Assembly: GCF_963675985.2 (NCBI RefSeq)
Contig: NZ_CAXXUC010000002.1
Location: 3,054,285 to 3,094,284 of the forward strand
Origin: an uncultured Roseibium sp.
Lineage (GTDB): Bacteria > Pseudomonadota > Alphaproteobacteria > Rhizobiales > Stappiaceae
Reading direction: 5' to 3'
Length of the DNA: 40,000 nt
The position numbers and the translations under genes are program-made. Below, in pieces: positions 5,036-37,340 of this stretch. The notes below the pieces were generated by a model. It made no database searches and had not been told where the DNA came from. It was given only the letters and a program-made list of their open reading frames with translations. Every line of letters starts with the position of its first letter. The stretch's first letter is position 1.

Positions 5036-5082
5036 AGCAATTGGGGCTTGGGAGGAAAAGCCCCGTAACCTGGGAGGAAATC

Positions 5083-17289: not shown

Positions 17290-18542
17290 CCGTTGATCTC
17301 CTCAGATTTTTGCAGGGCCAAGGCCAGCATGTCCTGCCGGCAGGCGATCTTCCGGCGGGTCCTGTCCGCCGGCAGGTCGGCCGTTTCCGCCTCATCGATG
17401 CGCTTCCAGCCGGCGTAATCGACCATATTTTCGCGGCCAACAATCAGACTATCCCGACCGCCTTTTCCGGTATCCGTACCGGCGGCGTCAAGATCCGCCA
17501 ATATACGGGTGGCGAGCGCCTGAGCGTCGGCGCGGTTTTCAGGGATCGTGCCTCGCGGGCCGCGGCGGAACCAGCCGGTCGCATAGAGCCCCGGAGCGAG
17601 CGCGCCGGCCTCCACGTCTTCTGCGGCGGCGACCAGATCGTCGCGCCCCAGAGGGCCGGCAGCGGCAAATCCGACGGCTGTGATGAGACTGTCGCAGGGG
17701 CGTTCGACTGTATCGCCGCTTGCATTCCGGAAGCGGACACCGGTCACCTTGCCGCCTTCACCGGTAATCTCCGCCGGTGTCAGGCCGAAGCGGAAGGTCA
17801 GACGGCGCGGACCGGTCCCATGGCCGTCAACAGTGGCCAAGGCGTCCAGCTTCTTCTGACCGTCGCCGCTCTGAGCCGTTCCCATTTCCTCGACGCGAAT
17901 GGTCACGCCGGAAAGCTTGGAAAGTTCCTTGATCATCACCGGATCGAACTTGGCGGCTTCGGCCACAGAGCGACCGACGATATCGATCGTCTCGATATCG
18001 TTGGCGGCAAGCCAGGCGCTCGGTCCGGCTCCGAAATCGGATCCGGCCAGTTCCTCGGGCGTTTTGCCGAGGATGCGCAACAGGTCGATGGCAACATTGC
18101 CGTTGCCCATGATGACGACCTTTTTGCCGAGCGTTGGCAGGGTTTCAGCATCTGGATGCTCGTAAAGGGCGCGGGTCAGATCACCGGCGCGGATCACGCC
18201 GTCCAGATCCTCACCCGGAATACCAAGCTGCCTGTCGCCCGGAAGACCGGCTGCCAACACGACGACATCGTAGCAAGCCCGTAGGTCGTCCAGGGACACA
18301 TCGTCGCCGATGGAAAGGTTGCCGATGAAGGTTGCGCCCATGCGTTCGAACACCCGCTCGAACTGGCGCGTGATCCCCTTGGTGCCCTGGTGATCGGCGG
18401 CGACGCCGTAGCGCACCAGACCGTAAGGCACCGGCAGACGGTCGATCAGGTCAACCTTGAGTTCCGAATTGGCCTTGAGCAGGGCCTGCGCCAGGAAGCA
18501 CCCGGATGGCCCGGCTCCGATGATGGCGACGGATGCACTCAT
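17286..18542 (-). CDS. FAD/NAD(P)H oxidoreductase, adrenodoxin-reductase / FprA-like
   Basis: 418 aa. Two dinucleotide folds: AIIGAGPSGCF and VVIMGNGNVAIDLLRIL. ATGA overlap with the aldehyde dehydrogenase gene. Confidence 0.8.
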   Translation of the reverse strand: MSASVAIIGAGPSGCFLAQALLKANSELKVDLIDRLPVPYGLVRYGVAADHQGTKGITRQFERVFERMGATFIGNLSIGDDVSLDDLRACYDVVVLAAGLPGDRQLGIPGEDLDGVIRAGDLTRALYEHPDAETLPTLGKKVVIMGNGNVAIDLLRILGKTPEELAGSDFGAGPSAWLAANDIETIDIVGRSVAEAAKFDPVMIKELSKLSGVTIRVEEMGTAQSGDGQKKLDALATVDGHGTGPRRLTFRFGLTPAEITGEGGKVTGVRFRNASGDTVERPCDSLITAVGFAAAGPLGRDDLVAAAEDVEAGALAPGLYATGWFRRGPRGTIPENRADAQALATRILADLDAAGTDTGKGGRDSLIVGRENMVDYAGWKRIDEAETADLPADRTRRKIACRQDMLALALQKSEEING

Positions 18543-22557: not shown

Positions 22558-23346
22558 TCAAATATGCCGGGAGACGCCGCCCGAGACCTCGATCTGTGCG
22601 CCGGTGATGTAGCTGGCGGCAGGCGAGCCCAGGAAGCAGATCGCCGCGGCGGCCTCCTCCGGCTGCCCCAGCCGTCCCAGCGGGATGCGTTTTTTCGAAG
22701 CGAGATCGGCGTACCAGTCTTCGCGGCTCTGGCTCTTGTCCTCACGGGCTTCGAACCGGCGCTGCCACTGGCCGGAATCGACCAGGCCGATCAGGATGGA
22801 ATTGACCCGCACCTTCGGCGCCAGTTCCACGCTCAGCGACTTGGCCAGGTTCTGCACGCCGGCCCGGGCGGAAGACGTGCACACCATGTGCGCTTCCGGC
22901 TGGTAGGCGAGCAGCGAATTGACCACGACGATGGCGCCGTTCGCTTCCGCCAGCATCGCCTTGAAGGCGCGCACCGGGCGGACCTGGCTGAACACCTTCA
23001 ATTCGTACTCGGCACGCCAGTCGTCATCCGACGTTTCGGCGAAGGTCGATACCCTGCCCTGGCCGGCGTTGTTGACCAGCAGATCGCACCGGCCGGACCG
23101 GTCCTGAACATCGACGGCGAAGGCCTGGACATCGGCCTCGTCGAGCACGTTCAGCGCCTTGGCAAACACCCGACCCTCACCGAATTCGGCGGTCAGTTCC
23201 GAAGCGACCTTCTGCAGTCGCTCCTCATTGCGGGCGCAGATCGCCACGTTCGCACCGCTTGCCAGAAGCAGGCGCGTCGTCGCCAATCCGATGCCTGAGG
23301 ATCCGCCGGTCACCACAGCGACCCGGCCGTCATAGCCGTAATGCAT
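22558..23346 (-). CDS. short-chain dehydrogenase/reductase family protein with a non-canonical active site
   Basis: 262 aa. Contains TGGSSGIG and NNAG. At the spacing expected for YxxxK after the catalytic Ser (VVNS), the sequence reads TSSAR. Confidence 0.85.
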   Translation of the reverse strand: MHYGYDGRVAVVTGGSSGIGLATTRLLLASGANVAICARNEERLQKVASELTAEFGEGRVFAKALNVLDEADVQAFAVDVQDRSGRCDLLVNNAGQGRVSTFAETSDDDWRAEYELKVFSQVRPVRAFKAMLAEANGAIVVVNSLLAYQPEAHMVCTSSARAGVQNLAKSLSVELAPKVRVNSILIGLVDSGQWQRRFEAREDKSQSREDWYADLASKKRIPLGRLGQPEEAAAAICFLGSPAASYITGAQIEVSGGVSRHI

Positions 23347-24260
23347 CAGTTCTTCCTCAGTTCCGGGAAGCCGGGATCGGGACGGCCCTGCATGACCGCG
23401 CGCTGCGCCGGGGTCGGCGGCCCGGCAGTCATCCAGCGGTCCATGGCTTCCGGATCGTTGCGCGACCAGACCTTGGCCTCGTGGGTCGCCTCGTCGATCT
23501 GTTGCAGTTCGGAGGTGAACTCGATCACGAAACCGGACGGCGAAACGAAATAGGCGAAGGGGTTGTTGCCCGGCCCGTGCCGGCCCGGTCCCCAGGTCGG
23601 AACATGACCCTTCTGCTTCATCCGGCCGATGCCGCGCATGAACTCGTCCAGCGTCGGCATTTCGAAGGCCACGTGATTGACGCTCGGGTAATGGGCGCGC
23701 ACCAGGGCAATCGAATGGTGATCCGTGTTGCAGCGGAGAAAGACCATCTGGTCGGCGGAATAGTCGGACACCCGGAAGCCGAGCACGTTGCAGTACCAGT
23801 CCTGAACGCCTTCCATGTCCGGTGTATTGAGCACCACATGACTGACCTTGCGCGGCATCGCCCAGTCGTCCTTCGGCTCCAGCTCCTTGGCCTCGGTGCG
23901 GAAACGCAGGCGGCGGTTGTCCGGGTCGAGCACCTCGAAACCGTAGCCGCCGCAGAAATCGGGGAACGGCGCCGGATCGCTAACAACAGCCGCGCCCGCT
24001 GCCTTCACCTGGGCATGCAGGGCGTCCATCGAGGCCCGGTCGGGCATGGAAAAGTGGACATATTCGATGCCGTAGACCGGTGCGTCCTTGAGACCGTAGA
24101 GAAACGGCTCGGTGCCCGTGCCACGCAGAAGAACTTCGTCGTTCCCCTTATGCGACAGGTCGAGGCCCCACATGTCTTCGTAAAACGGCAGCGTCTCGGT
24201 AATACCGGGTCCGCGCATCATGATGCCGCGCAGGGCGCCGACGCGTATCGGATCAGACAT
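23346..24260 (-). CDS. type I two-domain extradiol ring-cleavage dioxygenase (VOC superfamily)
   Basis: 304 aa. Candidate Fe ligands in SHVVLN, NHVAFE and IEFTSE. Its stop overlaps the next start as TGATG. Confidence 0.85.
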   Translation of the reverse strand: MSDPIRVGALRGIMMRGPGITETLPFYEDMWGLDLSHKGNDEVLLRGTGTEPFLYGLKDAPVYGIEYVHFSMPDRASMDALHAQVKAAGAAVVSDPAPFPDFCGGYGFEVLDPDNRRLRFRTEAKELEPKDDWAMPRKVSHVVLNTPDMEGVQDWYCNVLGFRVSDYSADQMVFLRCNTDHHSIALVRAHYPSVNHVAFEMPTLDEFMRGIGRMKQKGHVPTWGPGRHGPGNNPFAYFVSPSGFVIEFTSELQQIDEATHEAKVWSRNDPEAMDRWMTAGPPTPAQRAVMQGRPDPGFPELRKN

Positions 24261-24284
24261 TTTCCAGTCTCCTGTTCCGGCCCG

Positions 24285-25100
24285 TCATTGTGCGGGCGAC
24301 GTCATTGAAGCCAGCGCCAGGGCAAAAGCCTCAGGCGCCTGCTGATAAAGGGCGTGTCCCGCCGACGGCACTTCCGTGAGCGCACCGCGTGCGGACTGTG
24401 GGATGGCAGCATGGGTCTTGCGGGCGGCCTCGGGCGGCGTCACCACGTCTTCCGCACCGACAATCACGTCTGTCGGCACGGTCAGCCGGGCAGCATCGTC
24501 AAGCAGACGGCCGGACGCCAGCATGCGCACCGCCATGTCGTAGCCGGGGCTGGAGACGCGGGACATCGCATCGAAAACGCGCGCCACCAGATCCGGATTT
24601 GTCTCCGGTTCGAACACCAGCCGGGACGCACGGGCTTCGGCGAATTTTTCAGCCCCAAGGGCTGCCAGATCATCCAGCCGCTTCTGTGCCGCAGCACTCA
24701 AGGCGGACCCCGGCGTCACGCCGTGACCGAGCGCGGGCGATGCCAGTAGCAGATGCGCCACGCGGTCCGGGTAACCGGCCGCAAAGGCGGCCCCGATCAG
24801 GGTGCCGAGCGAATGGCCAACAAGCAGCACCCGATCCAGTCCGAGACGGTCCAGAAGGCCTTTCAGGGCCTCGGCATAGTCGGCGGCCTGAGGCCAATCC
24901 TTTGCCAGAGGCTCCGATCCGCCATAGCCTGGCGCGTTCCAGACAATCACCCGGAAGGTCGGGGCGATGTGATCGAGAAAGGGCGCGAACGACATCGCAT
25001 TGCTGCCGATGCCGTGAAGCAGCACCAGAACCGGACCTTCGCCCTGCGCTGGCCGTTCCAGATATTCGATACCGCCGGAAATGTGGGTCTGGACAGTCAT
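24285..25100 (-). CDS. alpha/beta hydrolase (meta-cleavage-product hydrolase-like)
   Basis: 271 aa. HG oxyanion motif VLVLLHGIG. Nucleophile elbow GHSLG. Located between the SDR and extradiol dioxygenase genes. Confidence 0.8.
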   Translation of the reverse strand: MTVQTHISGGIEYLERPAQGEGPVLVLLHGIGSNAMSFAPFLDHIAPTFRVIVWNAPGYGGSEPLAKDWPQAADYAEALKGLLDRLGLDRVLLVGHSLGTLIGAAFAAGYPDRVAHLLLASPALGHGVTPGSALSAAAQKRLDDLAALGAEKFAEARASRLVFEPETNPDLVARVFDAMSRVSSPGYDMAVRMLASGRLLDDAARLTVPTDVIVGAEDVVTPPEAARKTHAAIPQSARGALTEVPSAGHALYQQAPEAFALALASMTSPAQ

Positions 25101-25107
25101 GGGCGGC

Positions 25108-25851
25108 TCACTTGAAAACGAAACCGTTGTTGACCGGCATCACCTGGCCGGTCAGGGTCAGGGCGCCTTCGCTGACGAGGAAGGCGATCACGTCGGTGAT
25201 CTCGGAAGCTTCCTGCGGACCGGGAACCGCCCTGCCCTCGGCGTAAAGCCGATGGCGAGCTTCGGGCACGTAGTCGGTGGATTCCGTGGTCAGAATGCCC
25301 GGAGCGACAGCCGTGACGCCGATCCGTTCCGGCCCGAGCTCGCGCGCCAGCGAACGGGTCATGGACATGACCGCGCCCTTGCTGGCCACATAGGACATCA
25401 GCCGGGGCGCACCCCAGAGCGCGGTATCCGACGCGACGTTGACGATGCGGCCGGAGCCGGAGGCCGACAGCATCGGCCGGCAGGCCTTGGTCATCAGCCA
25501 GGTGCCGCGCACGTTGACGCGCATGACCCGATCCCAGCTGTCGATCTCGATCTCGTCGAAGGGAATACCGCCGATGCCGGTCGCGATCGCGCCGTTGTTG
25601 ACGAGACCGTGGAGCTTGCCGCCCGTCTCTGAAGCGACGGCCTCACCAAGCGCCTGAATGGATGCCGGCTCGCCGAGATCGACGGGAAAAAAGCGAACCG
25701 CCTCACCAAGCTCCTGTGCCACGGCACGGCCTTCCTCCTCGGCGATATCCGCCAGGATCAGCCGTGCACCATGGCCGGCAAGACTGCGGGCGATTTCGCG
25801 CCCGAGGCCACGCGCCGCGCCGGTGACGAGAATGGTCCGCTCTTTCAGCAT
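25108..25851 (-). CDS. classical SDR (dihydrodiol dehydrogenase-like)
   Basis: 247 aa. Contains TGAARGLG and the catalytic YVASK. Its start overlaps the Rieske gene stop as TAATG. Confidence 0.85.
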   Translation of the reverse strand: MLKERTILVTGAARGLGREIARSLAGHGARLILADIAEEEGRAVAQELGEAVRFFPVDLGEPASIQALGEAVASETGGKLHGLVNNGAIATGIGGIPFDEIEIDSWDRVMRVNVRGTWLMTKACRPMLSASGSGRIVNVASDTALWGAPRLMSYVASKGAVMSMTRSLARELGPERIGVTAVAPGILTTESTDYVPEARHRLYAEGRAVPGPQEASEITDVIAFLVSEGALTLTGQVMPVNNGFVFK

Positions 25852-26915
25852 TATTCGGCTGCCTCACTGGCGGTCAGTTCGGCCTCGATCTGGCTCTTGG
25901 CCGCACGGGTCAGCATCTGGCGGATACGGGAGACGCCGAGGTCGTGCTGATAGAGCATCTCGCGCTTGCGGGCATCGTCCGGCATGCCTTCCAGCATGAC
26001 CCGGTCCTGCTCCAGCACGTGCCAGTGGCGCTCCTCGAGCATGGCACGATAGAGGAAGCGCCAGCTTTCACGCGCCAGGCCGCTGACCTTGCGCAAGCGC
26101 CAGAAGAACACCTTGCAGGTGGTGGCATCGATCGGGGAAACGAAGCCTACGATACGCATGTTGCCGCCCGGGCCGGCCGCCGGCGGATAGGGAATGTCCA
26201 GGAAGCAGAACATGGTGCCCGGATGGATCTCGAATTCCGTCCAGTCGAAGTTGTCGCCCGCCTGCTCGACCCGGCTGACACGGAAACCGTCATCGGTCTT
26301 GTCCAGCTTCATCAGGTCCTGCTTGGCGCCATAAGCCAGCGTGAAGCTTTCCGCATGCAGATAGCAGCCGTGCATGGGGTCCGCGAGATTGTCGATGGCG
26401 TAGCGGTAGTTGGTGCTCCAGACGGAGGTGCACAGGAAGCCGGTCCATTCGTCGCTGGTGAACTCATGCGGCATCGCCAGTTCCGGCGGCTCAGGCTGCT
26501 CGACGCTCGGCATGTAGACGAAGACGGCGTCGTGGGTTTCCGTGGTGTGGAAGGACTTCAGCGCCTTGCGGCCTTCGAGTGCGCACTCCGGCATGGCAGG
26601 CACCCGCTTGACCACACCTTCTCCATCGACGATGACGCCGTGGTAGCGGCAGCCGATATCGCCGTCATGGATCTCACCGTAGGAGAGCGGCGCGCCGCGG
26701 TGGGGGCAGAAATCCTCGATGCACTGGATCTTACCTTCCTTGTCGCGCCACAGGACCAGCTTCTGGCCAAGCAGCTTGGCGCCGTAAGGCCGGGAATCCT
26801 TGACTTCGACGGATTTGGCAACCGGGTACCACTGCCCCAGGAGCCCCTGGTTCACGCGTTCCTCGATCAGCGCCTTCTTATCGATATCGGCCATGTCTCT
26901 CCACTCCTTGTCCAA
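25851..26915 (-). CDS. Rieske non-haem iron oxygenase, alpha-only type (VanA/KshA/phthalate-family-like)
   Basis: 354 aa. Rieske motif CPHRGAPLSYGEIHDGDIGCRYH (CxH-x16-CxxH). Mononuclear iron motif DPMHGCYLH. No beta-subunit gene nearby. Confidence 0.9.
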   Translation of the reverse strand: MDKEWRDMADIDKKALIEERVNQGLLGQWYPVAKSVEVKDSRPYGAKLLGQKLVLWRDKEGKIQCIEDFCPHRGAPLSYGEIHDGDIGCRYHGVIVDGEGVVKRVPAMPECALEGRKALKSFHTTETHDAVFVYMPSVEQPEPPELAMPHEFTSDEWTGFLCTSVWSTNYRYAIDNLADPMHGCYLHAESFTLAYGAKQDLMKLDKTDDGFRVSRVEQAGDNFDWTEFEIHPGTMFCFLDIPYPPAAGPGGNMRIVGFVSPIDATTCKVFFWRLRKVSGLARESWRFLYRAMLEERHWHVLEQDRVMLEGMPDDARKREMLYQHDLGVSRIRQMLTRAAKSQIEAELTASEAAE

Positions 26916-28908: not shown

Positions 28909-29679
28909 CTAGATGGTCTTTTCTTCTAGTTTGAGCAGCTCGAAGAGCTGCGCGGCGTAATTATTGACTTCCGGCAACTTGCGCCGCTGCAGTGGCCGTT
29001 CACGGTGTGGCAGATCGACCTTGATATCCGCGATCACGCGTCCCGGACGCTCCGACAGGACCAGGATCCGGTCTGACATCAGGACGGCTTCGGCAAGGTC
29101 GTGGGTAATCAGAAGAGTGGTCTTGCGGCTCTCGAAGATCGTTTCCGCAAAACTGTTCTGCAGCAGCATCTTGGTCTGCGCATCGAGGGCGGAAAACGGT
29201 TCGTCGAGCAGAATGATCTCGGGATCGATGGCAAGGGTGCGCGCAAGAGCTGCGCGTTGGCGCATGCCGCCGGAAAGCTGATAGGGATAATGGCCCTCGA
29301 AGCCGTCCAGGTGACAGTGCTTGAGTTCCTTCATGGCGGTGGCACGGCGCTCCTCGCGGGCCACGCCTCGGGCCTCCAGTCCGAACTCGATATTTTGCAC
29401 GATGCTGCGCCAGGGAAGCAGCAGATCCTTCTGCAGCATGAAACCGACATGCTGGTTCGGACCGGTCACCGTCTCGCCGCTGACCAGAACGTCACCGACG
29501 GTCGGCTGATACAAACCGGCGGTCATGCTCAAGATGGTGCTCTTGCCGCAACCGGACGGACCGACGACAGAAACGAATTCCCCCTCATCGACGCAAAAGC
29601 TGACGTCATCGACAGCCGTCATCCTGTCGCCGGAGCGGGACTCGAATTCCTTGGTGACGCCGCGAAATTCAAGCGCCAT
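28909..29679 (-). CDS. ABC transporter ATP-binding protein, NitT/TauT type
   Basis: Walker A GPSGCGKST, signature LSGGMRQRAALARTL, Walker B ILLDEPFSALD. Confidence 0.95.
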   Translation of the reverse strand: MALEFRGVTKEFESRSGDRMTAVDDVSFCVDEGEFVSVVGPSGCGKSTILSMTAGLYQPTVGDVLVSGETVTGPNQHVGFMLQKDLLLPWRSIVQNIEFGLEARGVAREERRATAMKELKHCHLDGFEGHYPYQLSGGMRQRAALARTLAIDPEIILLDEPFSALDAQTKMLLQNSFAETIFESRKTTLLITHDLAEAVLMSDRILVLSERPGRVIADIKVDLPHRERPLQRRKLPEVNNYAAQLFELLKLEEKTI

Positions 29680-29971
29680 AGCCGTTTTCCAGGTAAGCGG
29701 CGTCGAAATCCACGTTGATGGCGGTCAGCTCTTCGGACAGAAGCGCTTCGGTCCAGTCGGTCTTGCCGGAGATCGGCGCGACGACCTTGCGGTCCGTCAA
29801 GGCAGCGGCAACAGCGGCGTAGTCGCCGGCACCGGCCCCATAGATTTCCATCAGCGCTTCGGCGAGTTTTTGCTCAACCTCGGTCAATTCCCGTCCCCGG
29901 GACTGATGGGCAAGCGCCGGACGGCTGGTGTCGAACGCTTTTTGCGATAGGCGGTCTTTGAACAGATCCAT
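29669..29971 (-). CDS. small conserved-looking protein of unknown function; first gene of the long operon
   Basis: 100-aa soluble acidic protein. It overlaps the ATPase start by 11 nt. No motif I can assign with confidence. Confidence 0.6.
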   Translation of the reverse strand: MDLFKDRLSQKAFDTSRPALAHQSRGRELTEVEQKLAEALMEIYGAGAGDYAAVAAALTDRKVVAPISGKTDWTEALLSEELTAINVDFDAAYLENGYGA

Positions 29972-29986
29972 GTGACCCTCTGATTT

Positions 29987-30013
29987 TGTTCAATTTTGAA
30001 CACATTGATCAAT
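29987..30013. promoter_or_regulatory. two adjacent palindromes immediately upstream of the long operon
   Basis: TGTTCAA-TT-TTGAACA at 29987-30002 and the perfect 10-bp palindrome ATTGATCAAT at 30004-30013. They lie 16-42 nt upstream of the start at 29971. Confidence 0.4.
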
Positions 30014-30490
30014 TATGATGATTGCGCGGATAAAGGGGTCGAGTCAATGAAAAATTCACAAAGGCGGACCGGAAGGTTTACTGGCGGACAACGCAAGCCA
30101 TGGACCGCCCAGCCTACCGGCTAAAAAACAATCCGCATTTCAACGAATAAGGTGAGACGGTGGGATGAACTCTGCCTTGGGGTCGCTAAGCCGGGCCGGA
30201 AAGTTTTGCAAGGAAACCGGATGGCGCGCCGTTCCCACGCCGGGTCAAATTCGTTTCCATTTAAGAAGGCGGTCAAACGACGGCAGCGGTGACTGACCAC
30301 TTCCGGGCTTTAACAACAGCCCTCATTGACAGAACAAAAAGCCTGCGCCCGGCTCCGGAAATTTGCGAGCGACCGATCGCTCATTCCAGGCATTCTTCAC
30401 CGCAAAACGTCGCTCTTACTTCGGCGCCGTTACAACAGCCGCTCGCACTTTCGCTGACTTTCCGCGATTTCCGTTCCGCTACGTTGCTCT

Positions 30491-32695
30491 CTACACTTTC
30501 CCCTTCCGCCACGCGATCAGGCTCGGCAGCAGCAACAGGTCACCCAGGAGGGCCGTCAGGAGGGTTGCGATGAGCATCCCACCAAAGAGCCTGATGGTGT
30601 GGAACTCGCTGGCAAGCGTGACGAGCAATCCGCAGCTGATCAGCACAGTCGTGATGATCATCGCCTGTCCGGTTTCGCTCATGGTCGCGGCAAGCGCGCT
30701 GCGTGTGTCCGGCCAACGCCTCCTCTCCAGCATGTAGCGGTTGATGAAATGAATGGAGTCGTCGACCGCTATGCCGAAGGCGATGGTCAGCGACAGCAGA
30801 GCTGCAGGTGTCAACTCGCTGGCGTTGAGAACATGCAGGGCGGCAACAGCGACAGCAATGGGAAGCAGGTTGGGGAGAAGCAGCAGAACAATGAAGACCG
30901 GCGCCCGGTAGTAACCAGCGATCAGCAGCACCGTGATCAGACATGCACCGCCGAGACCAAGCGCATTGCGCCGGACAAGTTCCAACGTGTCATATCGCAT
31001 GATCATCGGCTGGCCGAAGATGTGCGCGGACGAGCCGGTCCGAACCGCTTCAACCAGCCGGTCCTGCACCTCAAGGGTTACCTTGTCGAACATGGGTTCC
31101 GGCATCAGGGCGACGACACGCGCACGATTTCCGTCGCCGGAAAGGAACAGAGACTTCGCGTCTGACGGCCAATCTGCGATTTCCTCAGGTGACGGCATCC
31201 GGCCCGGCTGCCCCAGCCACCGGGCCAGCGATACCAGCGACAGCACCGTATTGCCCGGAGCTTCCTTTTCGACCAGATCGTTCAGGTGTACCAGCCGCTC
31301 CCAGTCGGAGTGCGAGGCAAAGCCCTTACCGGTTCCGTTCTCCGCTTCCAGCTCGAACCAGAGCTGGTAGAAGCCGCCGAATTCCTGCGTGATGACGTCG
31401 TTGGCATAGATCAGGGCGCTATCGGCCGGCAGGTTGTCGTCCATCTTGAACCAGGGTTTGACCGTAAACACCCCGGCAAAGGCGGCGGCGGCTAGGATGA
31501 GGCTGCAGGCACGGATCGCGCCGGCATGATCCAGCATCCAGGAAACCCGTTCCTTTGAGAGCGCGAACAAGACCCTACGCCGGGTGCCCGGTTTTTTGGG
31601 CCACAACACCGGCGCGAGCAGACAGAAAACAGCGACAATCACTGCGTAACTCACGAGAACGGAAACCGCTCCCGCCACAGCCATCTCGCGTGTCTGTACA
31701 TTCTCGCTGATCATGATCGTCGAAAAGGCAATCGACGTGGTCACGCCTGTCAGCGCACAGGCTGGACCAACCGTCTCAAGCGCCTTGCGGGCACGTGCGC
31801 GCGCCGTGTCGCTGCTTGTGTTGGCATTGGCGCGCATGTTCAGGATCAGGTGCACCGTGTCCGCCACCCCCAGCACCATCACCAGCAATGGGATCGCGTT
31901 GTTGAGCACCGTGATCTTCAGTCCGAGCACGACAAAGACGACCAGCGATGTATAGGCGGCAGCAATTGAGGGCACCGCCGCCAGGACGACCAGACGCAGA
32001 TTACCGAAAACGATGAAGGAAACCACAAGGACAACCGCCACGCCCGCGACGTTGAAGATCCACAAATCCTGACGCAGCGCCCGGACCATTTCCGGGCCGA
32101 CGGTTTCCTCACCGGTAAAGGTGACGTGGAACCGATCACCGGCGGTCTCCTCCGTTATCTGTTTCAGTTCGGTCAGCAGATCAGCGGAAACGCCTTTGCC
32201 GGTCTCGATCAGGAACAGCGCCGATGTCCTGTCGGCGGAAACAGGCAGCTTTGGCTGCAGCTTCAACGCGTCATAGGCGGCAAGCCGTGCCTCGACCGTT
32301 TCCACATCCAGCTCCAGCGGCAGTAACGGTTCCTCGGGATAGTCCGGATGCCAAGGGGGAAACCGGGCCGATGCAAGGGAAAAGACCGCATCGACCCCAT
32401 CCGCAAGGGAATAACCGAACTGCAGGTCGCGCAAGAGCTCATAGCCGGCTGCGTCCAGCGGTTCGGGCGACTGGACCAGTGCCAGAAGCGGGGACGCCGG
32501 TCCGCCATTGGTGTCGGCGAATTCGAAATAGGCCTTCGCATGACCGCTGGAGGAAGCGAAGCTCGCGGTGATATCGTTCTCAAACCGGATATTGAGGACG
32601 GGAAAGACGGAAAGTCCCGCCAAAATCATCAGAACAATGGAAACAATGACGGGCCGCGACAGCGCCGCGTGGCCGGGCCACAACAGAAAATACAA
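30491..32695 (-). CDS. MMPL / RND-superfamily (HAE3/HpnN-like) lipid exporter
   Basis: 734 aa with two-fold architecture. Each half has a large loop followed by a TM bundle with a charged motif (VLGVADTVHL and FGIAVDDSIHF). TTG start with an AGGAGG ribosome-binding site. Confidence 0.8.
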   Translation of the reverse strand: MYFLLWPGHAALSRPVIVSIVLMILAGLSVFPVLNIRFENDITASFASSSGHAKAYFEFADTNGGPASPLLALVQSPEPLDAAGYELLRDLQFGYSLADGVDAVFSLASARFPPWHPDYPEEPLLPLELDVETVEARLAAYDALKLQPKLPVSADRTSALFLIETGKGVSADLLTELKQITEETAGDRFHVTFTGEETVGPEMVRALRQDLWIFNVAGVAVVLVVSFIVFGNLRLVVLAAVPSIAAAYTSLVVFVVLGLKITVLNNAIPLLVMVLGVADTVHLILNMRANANTSSDTARARARKALETVGPACALTGVTTSIAFSTIMISENVQTREMAVAGAVSVLVSYAVIVAVFCLLAPVLWPKKPGTRRRVLFALSKERVSWMLDHAGAIRACSLILAAAAFAGVFTVKPWFKMDDNLPADSALIYANDVITQEFGGFYQLWFELEAENGTGKGFASHSDWERLVHLNDLVEKEAPGNTVLSLVSLARWLGQPGRMPSPEEIADWPSDAKSLFLSGDGNRARVVALMPEPMFDKVTLEVQDRLVEAVRTGSSAHIFGQPMIMRYDTLELVRRNALGLGGACLITVLLIAGYYRAPVFIVLLLLPNLLPIAVAVAALHVLNASELTPAALLSLTIAFGIAVDDSIHFINRYMLERRRWPDTRSALAATMSETGQAMIITTVLISCGLLVTLASEFHTIRLFGGMLIATLLTALLGDLLLLPSLIAWRKGKV

Positions 32696-32926
32696 TCCGC
32701 CTCCTCTCCCGGCTGCCCGCCGCTACGCATGGAAAGGGCCGTGATCACGACCGCTTCCCGATCCCCGCACCAGAATATCCGATGGAAGACAAAAAGCCAT
32801 TCCGAACCCGGCTTCGCCGCGACCCTGTCTTTCCAGTACCGGCGAACCTCTGCTAGCATTCGCATCCGGACCCGGTAAACTGGCTCACGGGAACAAAATC
32901 CCGGATGTTTTCGTCCGGACAGGTAC

Positions 32927-33454
32927 TTGGGAACGCGCAACGTGACCAGAAGATCCTATTTAGCGGCAACGGCACTTGCTCTCGCAATTGCCTGCGGACC
33001 AGCTGCAGCCGATGATTTCCTGTCCAGAGCGGAAGGAACCTGGCGGGGCAAGGGATGGGCGAAGCAGAGCCTGGACGCGCCGAAGGAAGCCGTCCTGTGC
33101 CGCATCACGAACACCGTGGACACACGGAACAACCGGCTGAAAACCTCCGGACGCTGCGCGGTCGCCAGCCAGACCTTCACGGTAAACGGACAAATCACTG
33201 TTGCGCCGGGAACCGGCCGGATCACCGGCACCTGGCACATTCCGCAAGGGGCCGGCGATGCCGCCATATCCGGCCGAAGACAGGGAAACCGGATTGTCTT
33301 TACCTTTCAGGCCCCGGAAAAAAGTACGAAACAGGATCTGTTGCACAAGAGCCTGTGGACGCTCGGCACTTCGGCGTTGACGATCACTGCCAGCGTCAGA
33401 CAGCCGAATGACGGAAAGTACATCTCCTTGAGTTCTATAAATTTTTCAAAATAG
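32927..33454 (+). CDS. secreted lipocalin/FABP-like beta-barrel protein (hypothetical)
   Basis: 175 aa. Signal peptide SYLAATALALAIACGPAAA. GTWRGKG motif reminiscent of lipocalin-like/nitrobindin-type domains. The start is ambiguous (TTG 32927 or GTG 32942). Confidence 0.6.
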   Translation: MGTRNVTRRSYLAATALALAIACGPAAADDFLSRAEGTWRGKGWAKQSLDAPKEAVLCRITNTVDTRNNRLKTSGRCAVASQTFTVNGQITVAPGTGRITGTWHIPQGAGDAAISGRRQGNRIVFTFQAPEKSTKQDLLHKSLWTLGTSALTITASVRQPNDGKYISLSSINFSK

Positions 33455-33655
33455 CCATCGAAATAAAAACAAAACAACACGATTATATAGTCAATGACCG
33501 GCCTCTTTCGGCAGAAAAACTCGTTTTCGGACAAATATTTTCGATCAAACCAAATGTAAAGGAGAGCCAATTTTTACTGGACTACACATCTTGTCTTTGC
33601 CTTAATAGTATTTGATTTTATCGGTATTTTTCAGGTATTCGGCGGGTTGCGACAT

Positions 33656-35113
33656 ATGAACAGGTCAGAAGACATCGCCGAGGGGGCGCCCGTCTCCTCC
33701 CGCGTCGTCATTGTCGGCGCCGGAATGGCCGGTCTTCTTGCGGCACGCGTACTGGCCGATGACTTCGTGGATGTGGTGATGATCGAACGCGACCGGCTGC
33801 CGGACCGGTCCGGAGCCCGCCCCGGCGTGCCCCAATCCGCCCACGGGCATATTCTTCTCGCCGCCGGGTTCAGAACGATCGCCGAACTGTTTCCGGGAAT
33901 TGACCGGGAACTGGAGGAGGAAGGTGCCGAACCGGGCGACATATGCGCCGACGGCATCGTCAACGTCCGTGGCAGGCGCCTGCCGAGGTTTGCCTCCGAC
34001 CTGAAGACCCTCCTTATGAGCCGAGCCCTTCTGGAAGGACATATCCGGCAGCGGATCACGGCGATCCCCAATGTCGCCATCCGTACCGGCTGCAGGTCCA
34101 CCGGGTTTCTTTTTGACCGGACAGCCTCCCGCGTGACCGGAATCCGCCTGAAGACGACCGATGGCGCAGAGGAAGACCTTGTTGCGGATCTCGTCATCGA
34201 CGCCAGCGGACGCAGCGCCGCAGCATCGGCCTGGCTCGATAAAAACGGCCTCGGGCAGGTTCCAGAGATTGTCGTGGACGCCCATGTGGGCTATGCGTCG
34301 CGCCGGTTTTCCCTTCCCACAGAGCAAACAATGCTTCCAGCGGCAGACTGGAAAGTCGCCGCATGCGCCTGGCTGCCGCCAGGCAACCGGCGCGCGGGCG
34401 GCCTCTATCGGGAGGAAAACGGCGTCTGGGTCGCAAGCCTGGTCGGAGCGCTGGAGGCTACTCCCTCTACCGAAGCAGATGCCTTTCTGGACCACGCACG
34501 ACAGCTGGAGGACCCGGCACTTTACGAGGCCTTGCGCCACGGCGTGCCCCTGTCGAAGATCGCGGGCTACCGGGTGACCGGCAGCCGTCGGCGCCGTTTC
34601 AGCCCGTTGACGGCGCGCCTCAAGCGGCTGGTGGTCATCGGAGACGCCCTTTGCACCGTCAATCCTTTCTATGGTCAGGGTATGACGATCGCCGCCCTTC
34701 AGGCACGCGCCTTGCGAAGACGGTTCCGCCGGGGCGCCGCCCGGGGCGGCAGCACCCTAGATCGGGCCGCCCGTCATGCCCAGCGCGCCTGTGAAAGGGT
34801 AACGGCGGTGCCGTGGCTGTTTTCCACCACCGAGGATCTGCGCCACGGAGCGGCGGTGGAAGGTCGGCGCACCTTTGTGCACCGGGTGATCGATTGGTAC
34901 GTCAACCGAGCCCTTGCCGGAGGCGGACCACGCACGGTCCGCGCGCTCTACAACACCATGAGCCTAGTCGATCCGTTCGCCCTCGTCCGCCCGGGCACCG
35001 TATTAGACATTCTACTCATGCCGTTTTTAAGACGGGAGCGATACAATTTCAGAGAGACCAGCGATCAGCGGCCCTCGACCCTGAAGAAGCGCTGCGGGGG
35101 GGGTAGCACATGA
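33656..35113 (+). CDS. class A flavin-dependent monooxygenase (epoxidase/hydroxylase-like)
   Basis: Start at the ATG 33656. VVIVGAGMAGLLAA (GxGxxG), VIDASGRSAAAS, and VIGDALCTVNPFYGQGMTIAALQA (GD...G.G motif). Confidence 0.8.
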   Translation: MNRSEDIAEGAPVSSRVVIVGAGMAGLLAARVLADDFVDVVMIERDRLPDRSGARPGVPQSAHGHILLAAGFRTIAELFPGIDRELEEEGAEPGDICADGIVNVRGRRLPRFASDLKTLLMSRALLEGHIRQRITAIPNVAIRTGCRSTGFLFDRTASRVTGIRLKTTDGAEEDLVADLVIDASGRSAAASAWLDKNGLGQVPEIVVDAHVGYASRRFSLPTEQTMLPAADWKVAACAWLPPGNRRAGGLYREENGVWVASLVGALEATPSTEADAFLDHARQLEDPALYEALRHGVPLSKIAGYRVTGSRRRRFSPLTARLKRLVVIGDALCTVNPFYGQGMTIAALQARALRRRFRRGAARGGSTLDRAARHAQRACERVTAVPWLFSTTEDLRHGAAVEGRRTFVHRVIDWYVNRALAGGGPRTVRALYNTMSLVDPFALVRPGTVLDILLMPFLRRERYNFRETSDQRPSTLKKRCGGGST

Positions 35114-35991
35114 TGGCCGCCAAGACCGATTTCGCCAGTGAAAAAGCAGACGTCCGGGATGCGGTCGAGCGCTACCTGGAAGAGCAGTTCGCCGCCTATC
35201 CCGAGACCGAAGTCCGCCGGGCGGCCGAATACACAGCTCTTGGAGGCGGTCACCGTTGGCGGCCGATCGTGGCCATCTCGGCTGGACGCATCTTTCACAC
35301 CGACGCGCTGGAAATCGCCCTGCCAGGGGCCTGCGGCGCCGAACTTGCCCACGCCGCATCGCTGATTCTGGATGATCTGCCGTCAATGGACGACGCTGCC
35401 CTCAGACGCGGAAAACCCTGCGTCCATCTGGTCTTCCCCAGATGGGCTGTGGACATGGCCCCGGTCTTCCTGGTGACCATGGCTTATGCCATCAGCCTCA
35501 ATCACGACCGCTCGTCCGCAGACCGGCGCGTTCAGGCAGCGCTTGCCCTCAGTTCCGCCGGCACCGACATGATCGAAGGCCAGTGCCTCGACCTAGCCAG
35601 CAGCCTGGCAGACGGAACGGAATCCCAGATGCTCGATTGCTACCGGTTGAAGAGCGCCGCCCTTTATGGCGCGGCCGCACGTGGCGGTGCGCTCCTGTGC
35701 GGCGCGGGCCCTGAAGATGCGGACCGGATGGAACGCGCCGGCTTTTATCTCGGCCTCGCCTACCAGTTCATGGACGATGTCGCAGACGTCACCGCCACGG
35801 TCGAGGAGGTCGGCAAGCAGGTTCATCAGGATGACGGAAAGTTCACCGCCACGGCCTGGCTGGGCGTAGAGGGAGCAGCCGAAATGAGCCGGTCTTATCA
35901 GACGAAGGCCCTGGCCGAGCTTGAGCCCTACGGACCCGAGGCGGAATGGCTACGCAGTATCGTCAGCGAGGCAAGCTGGGCCACGCACTGA
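35110..35991 (+). CDS. polyprenyl diphosphate synthase (trans-isoprenyl diphosphate synthase family)
   Basis: 293 aa. First Asp-rich motif LILDDLPSMDDAALRRG. Second Asp-rich motif FMDDVAD. ATGA overlap with the monooxygenase gene. Confidence 0.9.
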   Translation: MMAAKTDFASEKADVRDAVERYLEEQFAAYPETEVRRAAEYTALGGGHRWRPIVAISAGRIFHTDALEIALPGACGAELAHAASLILDDLPSMDDAALRRGKPCVHLVFPRWAVDMAPVFLVTMAYAISLNHDRSSADRRVQAALALSSAGTDMIEGQCLDLASSLADGTESQMLDCYRLKSAALYGAAARGGALLCGAGPEDADRMERAGFYLGLAYQFMDDVADVTATVEEVGKQVHQDDGKFTATAWLGVEGAAEMSRSYQTKALAELEPYGPEAEWLRSIVSEASWATH

Positions 35992-35999
35992 ACGCCCGG

Positions 36000-37340
36000 C
36001 TAAGCCGAGGCCGTCGCCTGTCGCCGTACCCCTTTAAAGGGCATTCGCGTCGCGCCGCGCAACAGCAGCGACTTGCGCCACGACACCCTGCCGGCTTCGA
36101 TGTCGAAGCGGGAATAGGCATCCAGAAAGGCCTTGATTCCCTCCTCCAGCACCATCCGCGTCAGCGCCGCCCCCAGGCAGAAGTGAATACCATAGCCGAA
36201 GGTCAGGGGCTGCGGGTCGGGCCGATCCAGCAGCAAGCGGTCAGGCTCGACATAACGTCGCGGATCCCGGTTCGCGGCGACAAGCTGGATCATGATATTC
36301 GACCCGGCCGGGATGCGCTTGCCGCCGAGTTCCATATCCCGGGGAACATACCGCGGCGCGAACTTCACCGACGTGTCGAACCGACAGAACTCCTCCACCG
36401 CATTCGGCCAGATTTCCGGGTTATCCCGCAGTAGCGCCTGTTGATCGGGAAATCGGGCCAGAGCCAGGAGGGAATTACCGACCAGTCCGCCGGTCGTCTG
36501 CGACCCTGCCCCCAGCATCATCAATGCCATGGTGATCGTTTCCTTGCGGCTGAACTCCTCCCCCTCCGCACGGACCATGCCGGTGATGAAATCGTCCCTC
36601 GGCTCTTGCTTGCGCCGTTCGGCCAGTGCGTCGAAATAGCCGTAAAGCTCGTCGATAGTGGCGCTGACCGTTTCCGGATCGAACCGCAACAGAGGATCGA
36701 GCAGCTTGACGATCACGTCGGTCATGCGCTGCGACCAGTCCCAGTCCTCCTCCTGAATACCGATCAGGCTCGCAACGGCCGCATTCGCCAGCGGCCTGGT
36801 GAAATCCCGCGCCAGGTCGCCGTCGGGCCTGTCCGCAAGCCTCTCCAGAAGCCTATGCGCCGTGGCCTCGATTTGCCTTTGGAGCCGCGCGATGCTGCGC
36901 GAGGTGAACTCCCTGTGCACCATCCGGCGCAAGCGGGTGTGATCCGGCGGGTCGCTGACCAGGATCAGATTCCGGAACGTCCATTGCGCCAACGGCGAAA
37001 GTTTTGAATAAGGCCGGACGTTCAACAGCAGGCCGATCGGTTCGCCCACCAGCAGATCGTCGCGGGAAAGCACCTCCAGGGCTTCGTCATAGCCGGTCAC
37101 GACCCAGTGCCTGTAAAGCATCCGGTAGGTAACCGCTCCTTCCCTGTGCATGGCGGTGATCGCCGTAGTTGGATCGCGGGAAAACGACTCCCCCAGAGGG
37201 TTTCCCCAGGGGTCGAAGGCGAACACGAGACCGGCAAGTTTCGGATTGGCCGCAACGGCCTGCATCACCGGATAGAATATCTGCTCGAAATGCACGCTCG
37301 CCCCCGCCTGCAAACCCGATAGGCGGCTTCCTGCCGACAA
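36000..37340 (-). CDS. cytochrome P450
   Basis: Haem loop FGYGIHFCLGAALTR, ExxR in VEEFCRFD, I-helix LGAGSQTT. The start is uncertain: TTG 37340, GTG 37295 (preceded by GGGGG) or ATG 37268. Confidence 0.9.
   Translation of the reverse strand: MSAGSRLSGLQAGASVHFEQIFYPVMQAVAANPKLAGLVFAFDPWGNPLGESFSRDPTTAITAMHREGAVTYRMLYRHWVVTGYDEALEVLSRDDLLVGEPIGLLLNVRPYSKLSPLAQWTFRNLILVSDPPDHTRLRRMVHREFTSRSIARLQRQIEATAHRLLERLADRPDGDLARDFTRPLANAAVASLIGIQEEDWDWSQRMTDVIVKLLDPLLRFDPETVSATIDELYGYFDALAERRKQEPRDDFITGMVRAEGEEFSRKETITMALMMLGAGSQTTGGLVGNSLLALARFPDQQALLRDNPEIWPNAVEEFCRFDTSVKFAPRYVPRDMELGGKRIPAGSNIMIQLVAANRDPRRYVEPDRLLLDRPDPQPLTFGYGIHFCLGAALTRMVLEEGIKAFLDAYSRFDIEAGRVSWRKSLLLRGATRMPFKGVRRQATASA

Follow-up and report, generated by a model that had tools for sequence, protein, structure and literature searches.

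Five neighboring genes spanning positions 30491-37340 of the 40-kb stretch of Roseibium DNA that was analyzed (the window) form what we consider, with about even confidence, to be a rare, accessory and horizontally mobile cassette of two modules, by which an oxygenated isoprenoid lipid would be made and then moved from the inner membrane. The five ORFs were verified in the sequence, in agreement with an initial sequence-only reading of the same DNA, and are listed with their intergenic regions in Table 1.

Table 1. Genes and intergenic regions of the cassette, in window coordinates.
Feature	Coordinates	Strand	Basis or remark
MMPL/HAE3-type RND transporter with sterol-sensing (Patched) domain, 734 aa	30491..32695	-	Pfam
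Divergent promoter region of the pump and barrel genes	32696..32941	.	Palindrome GGAAAGGGCCGTGATCACGACCGCTTCC at 32731-32758
Nitrobindin/OlmO-like 10-stranded beta-barrel, secreted, 170 aa	32942..33454	+	AlphaFold2 + Foldseek
AT-rich intergenic region 5' of the epoxidase-synthase operon	33455..33655	.	Conserved short blocks
Class A FAD-dependent monooxygenase, MonCI/Lsd18 epoxidase family, 485 aa, WP_346899149.1	33656..35113	+	Pfam FAD_binding_3, DAO
Short-chain trans-prenyl diphosphate synthase, 293 aa, WP_346899151.1	35110..35991	+	Pfam polyprenyl_synt 132.9 bits
Cytochrome P450, CYP107-like, 446-aa ORF, convergent with the synthase	36000..37340	-	Pfam p450 77.4 bits

Gene order and its conservation

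Two close junctions described in the sequence-only reading were confirmed directly from the sequence, namely an ATGA at 35110-35113 in which the epoxidase stop overlaps the synthase start, and a gap of 8 nt between the stops of the synthase and the P450. That reading had also warned that the grouping might be coincidental and had suggested checking its conservation; we find that the five genes stay together in divergent Roseibium lineages whose flanks differ. All five genes are present at locus L001 in the same order and orientation, with the same flanks and at 86-96% identity. A second Roseibium lineage (L003, L084 and L085, from Roseibium sp. MMSF_3544-type genomes) has the same five genes, order and orientation with proteins 54-75% identical, and there the flanks are STAS, Na/Pi cotransporter, LacI and TRAP genes, as opposed to the ABC genes at the window's locus. 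Since the same arrangement is kept between unrelated flanks, the grouping is not due to chance, and this synteny together with the ATGA overlap argues for one functional unit. At L002 the epoxidase-synthase pair occurs alone, without the export genes, and with this locus included the two genes overlap or adjoin in all four lineages. Homologues of the barrel protein directly follow homologous RND pumps, or form fusions with them, at L173/L174, L175 and P0290, loci in which no synthase or epoxidase genes were found. Because the pump-barrel pair thus recurs without isoprenoid genes, we regard the cassette as having two separable modules.

Both intergenic regions may carry regulatory elements. The palindrome between the pump and barrel genes may act as an operator; the inverted repeat region is kept in L001 and not in L084. 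Upstream of the epoxidase gene, the blocks TTTTTACTGGACT and TTTGATTTTATCGG are conserved in an alignment of the window, L001 and L084, even in the 55%-identity lineage, and this region is a candidate promoter or operator.

The isoprenoid module

The synthase has the same fold as type II GGPP synthases (CrtE-like) and IspA, with both Asp-rich motifs intact (DDLPSMDD as the first, or FARM, and DDVAD as the second, or SARM), and among PDB entries the GGPP synthase 7mxz matches it best (E 2e-40). The first motif carries a two-residue insertion and is preceded by Ser at -4 and Ala at -5, small residues like those of GGPP synthases, and because of these residues the predicted product is GGPP, with a C15 chain as the alternative. 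However, the protein scores under the curated cut-offs of both the FPPsyn (155.7 versus 275) and CrtE (144.2 versus 460) models. Its motif I reads GGHRWRP, invariant in the family, where GGKRLRP is usual, and FPRWAVDMAPVF replaces the AILAGD region; with the conserved Lys replaced by His and the AILAGD stretch missing, the chemistry could differ from simple elongation. Orthologues are 96% (L001), 75% (L002) and 74% (L003/L084) identical. Among 5.8 billion protein clusters, only four reach at least 74% identity, the next being at 63% or lower, and the gene is restricted to a handful of Roseibium assemblies. A housekeeping gene would occur in all Roseibium, so we regard this one as accessory to the genus; the sequence-only reading would have been undone had it been the organism's sole housekeeping synthase, and it is instead a rare accessory gene. 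Members of the synthase family adjoin other isoprenoid-tailoring genes, one of them (L172) lying between dxs and xseB, and such neighbors argue that the family comprises genuine precursor synthases.

The flavoprotein (100% identical to P0001) can be read from position 33647 or 33656, of which the database record uses the ATG at 33656. In phmmer searches of the PDB it matched MonCI (E 6.6e-53, 183 bits, residues 15-396) and Lsd18/LasC (E 1.1e-39), the clear homology spanning its FAD and substrate domains, and its GxGxxG and GD motifs align with those of MonCI. The flavin epoxidase named in the sequence-only reading is thus, as judged from sequence, genuinely homologous to olefin epoxidases. MonCI and Lsd18, of the monensin and lasalocid pathways, are class A flavin monooxygenases that epoxidize trisubstituted olefins of long linear chains; MonCI forms three epoxides, and when overexpressed it increased epoxidation of the terpene linalool (PMC10560226). 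In contrast to those pathways, the neighborhood of the cassette contains neither a type I PKS nor a carrier protein or MonB/Lsd19 epoxide hydrolase, and since its partner is a prenyl synthase, the flavoprotein is predicted to act on an isoprenoid and not on an ACP-bound polyketide. Among the 80 loci examined from the wider MonCI-like family, none has the flavoprotein gene adjoining a prenyl synthase, and relatives therefore give no basis for assigning the substrate class. An alpha/beta hydrolase gene adjoins the family member in 11 of these loci and carries HGxP and GHDWGG motifs, which we take to be of the epoxide-hydrolase type.

The P450 has its top PDB matches among bacterial hydroxylases (7wex, 3wvs, Vdh and EryF; E 1e-58 to 1e-53), and its translation contains the heme-Cys motif FGYGIHFCLG and an ExxR motif. 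Its true start probably lies some 15 codons downstream of the TTG that opens the ORF. Orthologues are 92% (L001) and 67% (L003/L084) identical. Inside the five-gene cassette we found neither a redox partner for the P450 nor a diphosphate-removing enzyme.

The pump and the secreted barrel

The pump scores 83.8 bits with the Pfam MMPL model, 41.6 with Patched and 37.4 with Sterol-sensing, and its hydropathy fits the 12-TM layout of RND proteins (TM, long loop, TM cluster, TM, long loop, TM cluster). Sequence searches of the PDB matched it only to NPC1L1 and HMG-CoA reductase, in their regions of the sterol-sensing type. The MMPL/RND assignment of the sequence-only reading therefore stands at the level of the family; a mycobacterial MmpL identity was dropped in favor of an HAE3/HpnN-like one, given the NCBIfam matches to HAE3 (106 bits) and HpnN (47.8 bits), both of them far under the curated cut-offs. 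The L001 orthologue is 93% identical, and those in L003/L084 are 57-58% identical. We propose that the pump exports the lipid product.

The barrel ORF can be extended to a TTG at 32927 (32927-33454, 175 aa), although the true start is probably the GTG at 32942. The protein has no Pfam match above threshold; it carries an N-terminal signal peptide and two invariant cysteines, and an AlphaFold2 model built from a 48-sequence alignment gave 10 strands with a pLDDT of 90.5 and a pTM of 0.80. The prediction of a secreted beta-barrel thus held, whereas its description as lipocalin-like did not, the modeled barrel being of the 10-stranded nitrobindin type and not the classical 8-stranded lipocalin. 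A Foldseek search of the PDB ranked the spirocyclases OlmO and OssO and nitrobindin first (TM 0.64-0.76), and with these and THAP4-type barrels of the calycin superfamily the protein shares an antiparallel 10-stranded fold of about 150 residues, at a sequence identity of only 10-14%. Sub-threshold Pfam matches to DUF1579 occur in 21 of the 48 family members, with THAP4_heme-bd also matched in some. There are 296 remote homologues, and a Glu (E49) and a Trp (W34) are nearly invariant. The barrel differs from this group in having no conserved His for heme, in being secreted, in its conserved Cys pair (presumably a disulfide) and in its genetic linkage to RND pumps. We propose that it may be a periplasmic lipid carrier partnering the pump.

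Alternative readings and the proposed route

Pfam scans of all other coding-looking ORFs in the 40-kb window found no terpene cyclase, squalene/phytoene synthase or UbiA prenyltransferase, as the sequence-only reading had claimed. These ORFs gave only catabolic, transporter and regulator genes, the window outside the cassette being rich in catabolic ones. The window lacks any aromatic or UbiA prenyl acceptor enzyme, which leaves the earlier suggestion of a meroterpenoid without support. Nor is the route undescribed in its first half: phenalinolactone, brasilicardin and atolypene biosynthesis is established to begin with a synthase and a flavin epoxidase acting on a polyprenyl chain (PMC11317874, PMC11600129). 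The nearest known system is the core of four genes found in the phenalinolactone and atolypene clusters (PlaT1-4/AtoC-F: polyprenyl synthase, flavin epoxidase, UbiA and class II cyclase), two genes of which are absent here; we liken PlaT1/AtoF to the cassette flavoprotein by enzyme description and not by sequence subfamily. The cassette, with half of this core and with a P450, a common component of such pathways, might deliver epoxy-GGPP to a UbiA protein and an epoxide-opening class II cyclase encoded elsewhere in the genome, for a cyclized diterpenoid or meroterpenoid of the phenalinolactone, brasilicardin or atolypene type. The lone pair at L002 would fit such a split pathway. Nevertheless, we consider it unlikely, as there is no UbiA or class II cyclase gene in the window or, at L001, L002, L003 and L084, less than 10 kb away from the pair, and the five-gene unit has changed its genomic context without either.

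Less probable again, at long odds, is a terpenoid polyether, in which the MonCI-type enzyme would set several epoxides on a C20 chain and an opening cascade would give tetrahydrofuran or tetrahydropyran rings, the OlmO-like barrel serving as ether-forming cyclase after export. MonCI and Lsd18 are multi-epoxidizing enzymes of polyether pathways, OlmO and OssO form polyketide spiroacetals, E49 and W34 are conserved across the barrel family, and a SnoaL_2-family protein, from the fold family of the MonB/Lsd19 epoxide hydrolases, adjoins the cassette in L084. However, neither the window nor L001 has the SnoaL_2 gene, the barrel is secreted and the oxidases are cytoplasmic, nitrobindin (a binding protein) resembles the barrel as strongly as OlmO does, and the recurrence of barrel and pump without an epoxidase fits a carrier better. 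A slightly smaller chance still attaches to there being no dedicated product, with the synthase as a general FPP/GGPP supplier, or the oxidases modifying or degrading isoprenoids from outside or from the membrane, for example quinone side chains, the pump as a general solvent or lipid efflux system, and the grouping without pathway meaning. The dxs/xseB setting of the L172 family member is the usual housekeeping position of ispA, the surroundings are catabolic, and JGI annotates the flavoprotein as 'UbiH-like'; yet the Ubi-OHase model gives only 29 bits against a cut-off of 224.65, and the rarity of the synthase, the stop/start overlap and the synteny across different flanks all speak for a dedicated function. 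Very improbable, finally, is a flavoprotein of the geranylgeranyl-reductase type, by which the pair would make a partly saturated, phytyl-like chain and not an epoxide. The geranylgeranyl-reductase superfamily model TIGR02032 is the best NCBIfam match (E 1.2e-10), and a synthase relative at L171 adjoins a protein with a GYGWVF motif, presumably typical of such reductases, but the TIGR02032 score of 41.6 bits is far from the cut-off of 158.8, the MonCI match extends over 380 residues, and a BLASTP comparison of the L171 flavoprotein with the window enzyme gave no match at E <= 1e-3.

Under the preferred reading of a two-module cassette, the synthase would elongate to the all-trans C20 diphosphate (GGPP) at the cytoplasmic face, and the translationally coupled MonCI/Lsd18-family enzyme would epoxidize at least one trisubstituted double bond of the chain with NAD(P)H and O2. 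Its substrate may be the diphosphate or the alcohol; for the former, AtoC (a GFPP synthase) and AtoF (the epoxidase) alone are reported to form a terminal epoxide that was recovered in diol form (PMC11600129). The P450 could then add a further hydroxyl or oxidation. As no cyclase or prenyltransferase is present, the expected product would be an acyclic epoxy, diol or hydroxy C20 isoprenoid, an epoxide-opening ether, or possibly a precursor for enzymes encoded elsewhere.

The export step would parallel those of HpnN for hopanoids, BstA/BstB/BstC for bacterial sterols and NPC1/NPC2 of eukaryotes. Like these, the cassette combines an MMPL/HAE3-type RND protein bearing a sterol-sensing-type domain with isoprenoid-lipid genes and a small soluble periplasmic partner of hydrophobic-ligand fold, the Bst system in particular having an MMPL-family pump and periplasmic binders beside isoprenoid-lipid synthesis genes (PMC10942540). 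It differs from HpnN and Bst in lacking hopanoid or sterol genes, and from BstB (PF12974) and BstC in that the putative lipid binder is a nitrobindin-like barrel. Whereas the PlaT1-4/AtoC-F hosts are actinomycetes, the host here is an alphaproteobacterium whose cassette has a pump-barrel export module attached, by which the pump would pull the lipid from the inner membrane and pass it to the periplasmic barrel, and so to the outer membrane or the medium.

Genes of the cassette and the surrounding 40 kb

All five open reading frames named in the sequence-only reading were recovered from the window by ORF calling and Pfam searches, and the two gene junctions it described can be seen directly in the sequence, i.e., the ATGA at 35110-35113 in which the stop of the flavoprotein gene overlaps the start of the polyprenyl synthase gene, and the convergent arrangement of the synthase and P450 genes across a gap of 8 nt. 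Its statement that there is no terpene cyclase, squalene/phytoene synthase or prenyltransferase likewise held in Pfam scans of all coding-looking ORFs of the 40 kb, which found none of these enzymes (for prenyltransferases, no UbiA). Outside the cassette, the ORFs encode TRAP and ABC transporters, regulators, a molybdopterin dehydrogenase and a set for aromatic-ring cleavage.

Genes of the cassette, with window coordinates and the main basis for each assignment
Feature	Position	Strand	Basis
MMPL-type RND pump	30491-32695	-	Pfam MMPL (83.8 bits), Patched and sterol-sensing domains
Small secreted barrel protein	32927-33454 (alternatively 32942-33454)	+	Signal peptide; no Pfam family above threshold
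FAD enzyme (flavoprotein)	33656-35113	+	Homology to MonCI/Lsd18
Polyprenyl synthase	35110-35991	+	Pfam polyprenyl_synt (132.9 bits, gathering score 27); DDLPSMDD and DDVAD motifs
P450	36000-37340	-	Haem-Cys and ExxR motifs

A membrane cyclase hidden in unannotated space was considered and rejected, as the intergenic gaps of the cassette are at most 519 nt long and none holds an ORF with coding-like composition. We judged the 519-nt gap, the largest non-coding stretch in the cassette, too short for a class II terpene cyclase. This stretch adjoins the 3' end of the pump gene and follows a gene for a 100-aa HTH_62 ("recombinase-like HTH") protein in the 29669-30490 region. That gene and the start of the neighbouring ABC ATPase gene overlap; the HTH_62 gene is kept in the closely related locus L001 and missing from the more distant L084. 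Also common to the window and L001 is an aromatic catabolic set (23346-26915, minus strand) comprising a Rieske/VanA-type oxygenase, an SDR, a meta-cleavage-type hydrolase and a glyoxalase-fold dioxygenase, which lies between two ABC importer systems and is unrelated to the cassette.

The cassette includes no regulator gene. Promoter-like sites were no commoner than background (1 against 2.0 expected), and terminator-like sites numbered 15 against a shuffle mean of 8.2, an excess from which we draw no conclusion. The divergent promoter region between the pump and barrel genes holds a palindrome, GGAAAGGGCCGTGATCACGACCGCTTCC, at 32731-32758, which is kept in L001, absent from the L084 lineage, and may be an operator. 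The intergenic region upstream of the flavoprotein gene (33455-33655) is AT-rich, and two blocks within it, TTTTTACTGGACT and TTTGATTTTATCGG, are conserved even in the lineage at 55% identity, a hint that the flavoprotein-synthase operon has a conserved promoter or operator of its own.

Conservation and origin of the five-gene unit

The sequence-only reading had allowed that the grouping could be coincidental, and comparison with related loci contradicts this. The five genes are co-conserved in L001, at 86-96% protein identity and with the same flanks, and again in a second, diverged Roseibium lineage (L003, L084 and L085), where order and orientation are as in the window. Identities to the window proteins in that lineage are 57-58% for the pump, 54% for the barrel, 54-56% for the flavoprotein, 74% for the synthase and 67% for the P450, and the synthase on these contigs is identical to that of Roseibium sp. 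MMSF_3544. The flanks there (STAS, Na/Pi cotransporter, SnoaL_2 and Ser hydrolase genes on one side, LacI and TRAP genes on the other) are unrelated to the ABC transporter genes that flank the cassette in the window. In a fourth lineage, L002, the flavoprotein and the synthase (57% and 75% identical to those of the window, respectively) are the only two of the five present. This pairing is thus conserved in four lineages, with the flavoprotein stop and synthase start overlapping by 4-8 nt in three of them, and the five-gene grouping is more than chance.

The GC content falls to 0.58-0.60 across 29-34 kb, a region that takes in the pump, the barrel and the start of the flavoprotein gene, against 0.64-0.65 on both sides, which is compatible with a horizontally acquired cassette. 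At the cassette borders we found no tRNA, no Rfam match and no convincing terminal repeats as signatures of a mobile element, and in the plasmid collection there was no match to the synthase at E <= 1e-40 and only distant relatives of the flavoprotein. Between the cassette and the flanking genes, L084 carries a SnoaL_2-family protein and a Ser-nucleophile alpha/beta hydrolase (4071-5312). SnoaL-like folds include polyether epoxide hydrolases, and these two proteins may provide an optional tailoring step; the window has no counterpart of either, nor of an AttH protein. Our literature search found no description of this cluster in Roseibium or Labrenzia.

Predicted biosynthetic enzymes and putative export proteins

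At 100% identity, the flavoprotein matches WP_346899149.1 of an uncultured Roseibium sp., and a mycobacterial origin, first guessed at from the presence of MMPL, P450 and synthase genes together, was rejected on this ground. Searched against solved structures, it matched MonCI over residues 15-396 (E 6.6e-53, 183.5 bits) and Lsd18/LasC (E 1.1e-39), with all subsequent PDB matches at E > 1e-4. Its FAD-fold GxGxxG and GD(x)nNPxYGxGM motifs, VIVGAGMAGLLAA and VVIGDALCTVNPFYGQGMT, align with VVLGASMAGTLAA and LVIGDSLTAFNPIYGHGMS of MonCI. By homology it belongs to the MonCI/Lsd18-type family of class A epoxidases, and NAD(P)H- and O2-dependent olefin epoxidation is the predicted activity. MonCI is a class A flavin monooxygenase that installs three epoxides on a linear polyene, and epoxidation of linalool, a terpene, rose by as much as 20-fold when monCI was overexpressed (PMC10560226). 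Two other assignments were rejected: a UbiH-like quinone hydroxylase, as in the JGI label "UbiH-like", for which the Ubi-hydroxylase model gave 29 bits against a cut-off of 224.65, and a geranylgeranyl reductase, for which the superfamily model gave 41.6 bits against a cut-off of 158.8, compared with 183 bits for MonCI.

More than 2,000 proteins are 35-44% identical to the flavoprotein, and the broad MonCI-like family occupies at least 588 genome loci in cyanobacteria, Chloroflexota, actinomycetes, Acidobacteriota and Nitrososphaerales. A profile scan of genome contigs with the flavoprotein alignment returned this distant family (at most 41% identity), with no Roseibium locus and no further copy of the cassette. 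Among the 80 loci that we looked at, which served as a negative control, neither prenyl synthases nor MMPL pumps occur within 10 kb, and a P450 match of any kind is present nearby in only three. The sole recurrent neighbour is an alpha/beta hydrolase, which adjoins the flavoprotein in 11 of the 80 (for instance L044, 5548-6408) and carries HGxP and GHDWGG motifs that we take to be of the epoxide-hydrolase type; with such a neighbour, the broad family as a whole looks like epoxidases. Two Archangium loci (L024 and L063) have tandem flavoprotein copies. The link between epoxidase and prenyl synthase is specific to a small Roseibium clade.

For the synthase, DDLPSMDD (the FARM, with the bacterial two-residue insertion) and DDVAD (the SARM) are invariant in a family alignment of 25 sequences, as are GQxxD, KS/T and GKxxGxD...K.T, so that every catalytic signature of an enzyme that elongates trans-prenyl chains is kept. 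The closest solved protein is the GGPP synthase 7mxz (E 2e-40). Five residues before the FARM stands Ala, a position taken by Tyr in the FPP synthase 7lbj and by Met in the GGPP synthase; under the established rule for chain length, we infer from this Ala a product of C20 or longer. The family is set apart by an invariant GGHRWRP in place of the GGKRLRP of 7mxz, in which the Lys that normally binds the IPP diphosphate (motif I, GGKRxR) has become His and the Arg residues are kept, and by an invariant FPRWAVDMAPVF where the AILAGD region would be. Curated models score it under their cut-offs (FPPsyn 155.7 against 275, CrtE 144.2 against 460, IspA 116.1 against 321).

Whether this synthase is a housekeeping enzyme was assessed from its distribution. 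Among 5.8 billion clusters only four are at least 74% identical to it, all from a few Roseibium-type assemblies; since a housekeeping gene would show in every sequenced Roseibium, such rarity points to an accessory enzyme. Further relatives are at most 63% identical and come from other taxa, and this wider family (55-63% identity; Hyphomicrobiales, Phycisphaerae and others) has varied isoprenoid-related neighbours. A metagenome-contig scan with the synthase alignment returned mostly generic prenyl synthases and only four family members, of which L091, the one we looked at, was uninformative. Five loci have relatives that are 55-60% identical to the synthase. On three Hyphomicrobiales-type contigs, L086 (6481-8888), L170 (6410-8897) and L172 (4500-9166), the synthase relative adjoins a CYP4-like P450, and in L172 the pair is inserted between dxs and xseB. 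These P450s are mutual orthologues (31-52% identity) and are not orthologous to the window P450, so the idea of a wider orthologous synthase-P450 pair was dropped. Elsewhere, in a Phycisphaerae MAG (L088, 6170-8870), the synthase relative is preceded by an AttH/CrtC-like gene and by a hydrophobic protein of 240 aa that has no annotation, and in L171 (8001-10120) it faces, in convergent orientation, a flavoprotein with a motif like that of geranylgeranyl reductases.

The P450 has intact haem-Cys and ExxR motifs, and its best PDB matches are 7wex, 3wvs, Vdh and EryF (E 1e-58 to 1e-53), bacterial CYP107-type hydroxylases. The cassette encodes no redox partner for it. Proteins that could take this role are a flavodoxin and a Pyr_redox_2 reductase at 16822-18542 (minus strand), 19 kb away and outside the conserved cassette, in an operon that also has aldehyde dehydrogenase, aspartate-dehydrogenase-like and TPP-enzyme genes.

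The hydropathy of the pump is compatible with the RND layout of 12 transmembrane segments and two periplasmic loops, and its sequence matches in the PDB are confined to sterol-sensing-type regions. It scores far under the curated cut-offs for TIGR00921 (HAE3, 106.4 against 351.9), TIGR03480 (HpnN, 47.8 against 751.85) and NF052374 (22 against 1100), and is best described as HAE3/HpnN-like. The barrel has three close homologues and 296 remote ones by exhaustive profile search, and no sequence match in the PDB. An AlphaFold2 model built from a 48-sequence alignment (pLDDT 90.5, pTM 0.80) has a short helix and ten strands, and Foldseek placed it near nitrobindin, Rv2717c and the OlmO and OssO spirocyclases (TM 0.64-0.76), so the predicted fold is a 10-stranded antiparallel nitrobindin-like calycin barrel. 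Only sub-threshold matches to the known families DUF1579 and THAP4_heme-bd were found: the barrel itself scores 13.7 bits against 25.2 for DUF1579, and 21 of the 48 relatives match that family at E <= 1 (best E 6.3e-05). The conserved columns of the same alignment are a Gly, two Cys, a Trp, a Glu and a Phe; no haem-ligating His is among its invariant or nearly invariant columns, and the barrel is therefore no haem nitrobindin. A twin-arginine signal was also considered for the barrel and set aside, as it is not conserved among the orthologues.

The pump and barrel form an independent, recurrent unit. In L173 (5710-8516) and L174, the gene for a remote barrel homologue and the stop of a homologous MMPL/sterol-sensing pump gene overlap; the pump gene lies downstream of a fatty-acid-desaturase-family gene, with no synthase or epoxidase. 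In L175 (3-1627) there is again such an overlap, here with the end of a gene for a pump that is 42% identical to the window pump, and in one protein, P0290, the barrel is joined in a single predicted product to a C-terminal segment of the pump. This independent recurrence favours a carrier role over that of a pathway-specific enzyme, and from these sequences the two proteins look like an undescribed lipid-export pair. In L173, a PAP2 gene lies downstream of the pair. The recurrent RND-barrel pair is a by-product of this work of some independent interest.

A candidate route to an exported oxidised isoprenoid

As in the phenalinolactone/atolypene (Pla/Bra/Ato) cores, a polyprenyl synthase adjoins a flavin epoxidase; unlike those cores, neither a UbiA prenyltransferase nor a class II (SHC/OSC-like) cyclase is present in the window ORFs or in the gene tables of L001, L002, L003 and L084. 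Unlike the MonCI and Lsd18 polyether systems, the epoxidase has no PKS context: neither the ORFs of the 40-kb window nor those same four loci include a type I PKS, a carrier protein or a MonB/Lsd19 epoxide hydrolase. The cassette's synthase and pump also differ from the curated FPPS/GGPPS and HAE3/HpnN families in falling under their cut-offs. By analogy, the export module would parallel HpnN and BstA/B/C in its logic; BstA is an MMPL-family pump found beside sterol genes together with periplasmic binders (PMC10942540). Unlike BstABC, the cassette has no BstB-type (PF12974) or BstC-type binder and there are no sterol genes (the window does encode NMT1/Phosphonate-bd proteins, but as parts of the flanking ABC importers), and its periplasmic partner has another fold than those of BstABC/HpnN-type systems. 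The cassette would join early phenalinolactone/atolypene-type steps to HpnN/Bst-like export, and falls outside each of these groups.

We propose a scheme of two modules, synthesis and export, to which we give an even chance of being correct. The synthase would make GGPP, the MonCI-type enzyme coupled to it would epoxidise one or more olefins of the chain, and the P450 would oxidise the product further; the diphosphate would presumably be lost. The pump would then take the product from the inner membrane and deliver it to the periplasmic barrel, which may bind the lipid. As a precedent for the first steps, AtoC and AtoF suffice for a polyprenyl chain with a terminal epoxide, which was isolated in the form of the diol and the acid (PMC11600129).

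Other readings of the cassette can be weighed against this scheme. The cassette could encode the first half of a pathway of the Pla/Bra/Ato type, with the UbiA prenyltransferase and the class II cyclase of that pathway encoded elsewhere in the genome. This seems unlikely, as such cores are usually a single operon (PMC11600129) and the five-gene unit has moved without either enzyme. The capacity of MonCI-type enzymes to install several epoxides would also suit a terpenoid polyether, in which a GGPP-derived chain is poly-epoxidised, exported by the pump and ether-cyclised by an OlmO-like periplasmic barrel; the barrel is, however, periplasmic and recurs without epoxidases, and we regard this route as decidedly improbable. 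That the genes are housekeeping or grouped by coincidence is more doubtful still, being contradicted by the rarity of the synthase, the gene overlap and the synteny, and it is very hard to credit that the flavoprotein is a reductase instead of an epoxidase, given the model scores.

The cassette is a rare and credible candidate for oxidised isoprenoid chemistry that needs no cyclase, and one that lends itself to experiment. If the two-module scheme is true, marine alphaproteobacteria have turned epoxidases of the polyether type to isoprenoid chains, oxygenated isoprenoid lipids are made without any terpene cyclase, and genome mining by rules built around terpene cyclases would probably overlook this chemistry. 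The HAE3/MMPL-type pump and nitrobindin-like barrel would be a widespread, undescribed lipid-export pair (there are about 300 barrel homologues), joining the few known movers of isoprenoid lipids in the Gram-negative envelope, HpnN and BstABC. The GGHRWRP synthase family, lying beside varied tailoring enzymes, would offer a tractable handle for further small terpenoid clusters. Were the polyether reading true instead, cyclic terpenoids would be made by a route without a cyclase, and periplasmic barrels that pair with RND lipid pumps would form a new class of enzymes. Roseibium is often found in association with corals, sponges and algae, and with such host association one may speculate that an exported oxidised isoprenoid could be a host-interaction signal.
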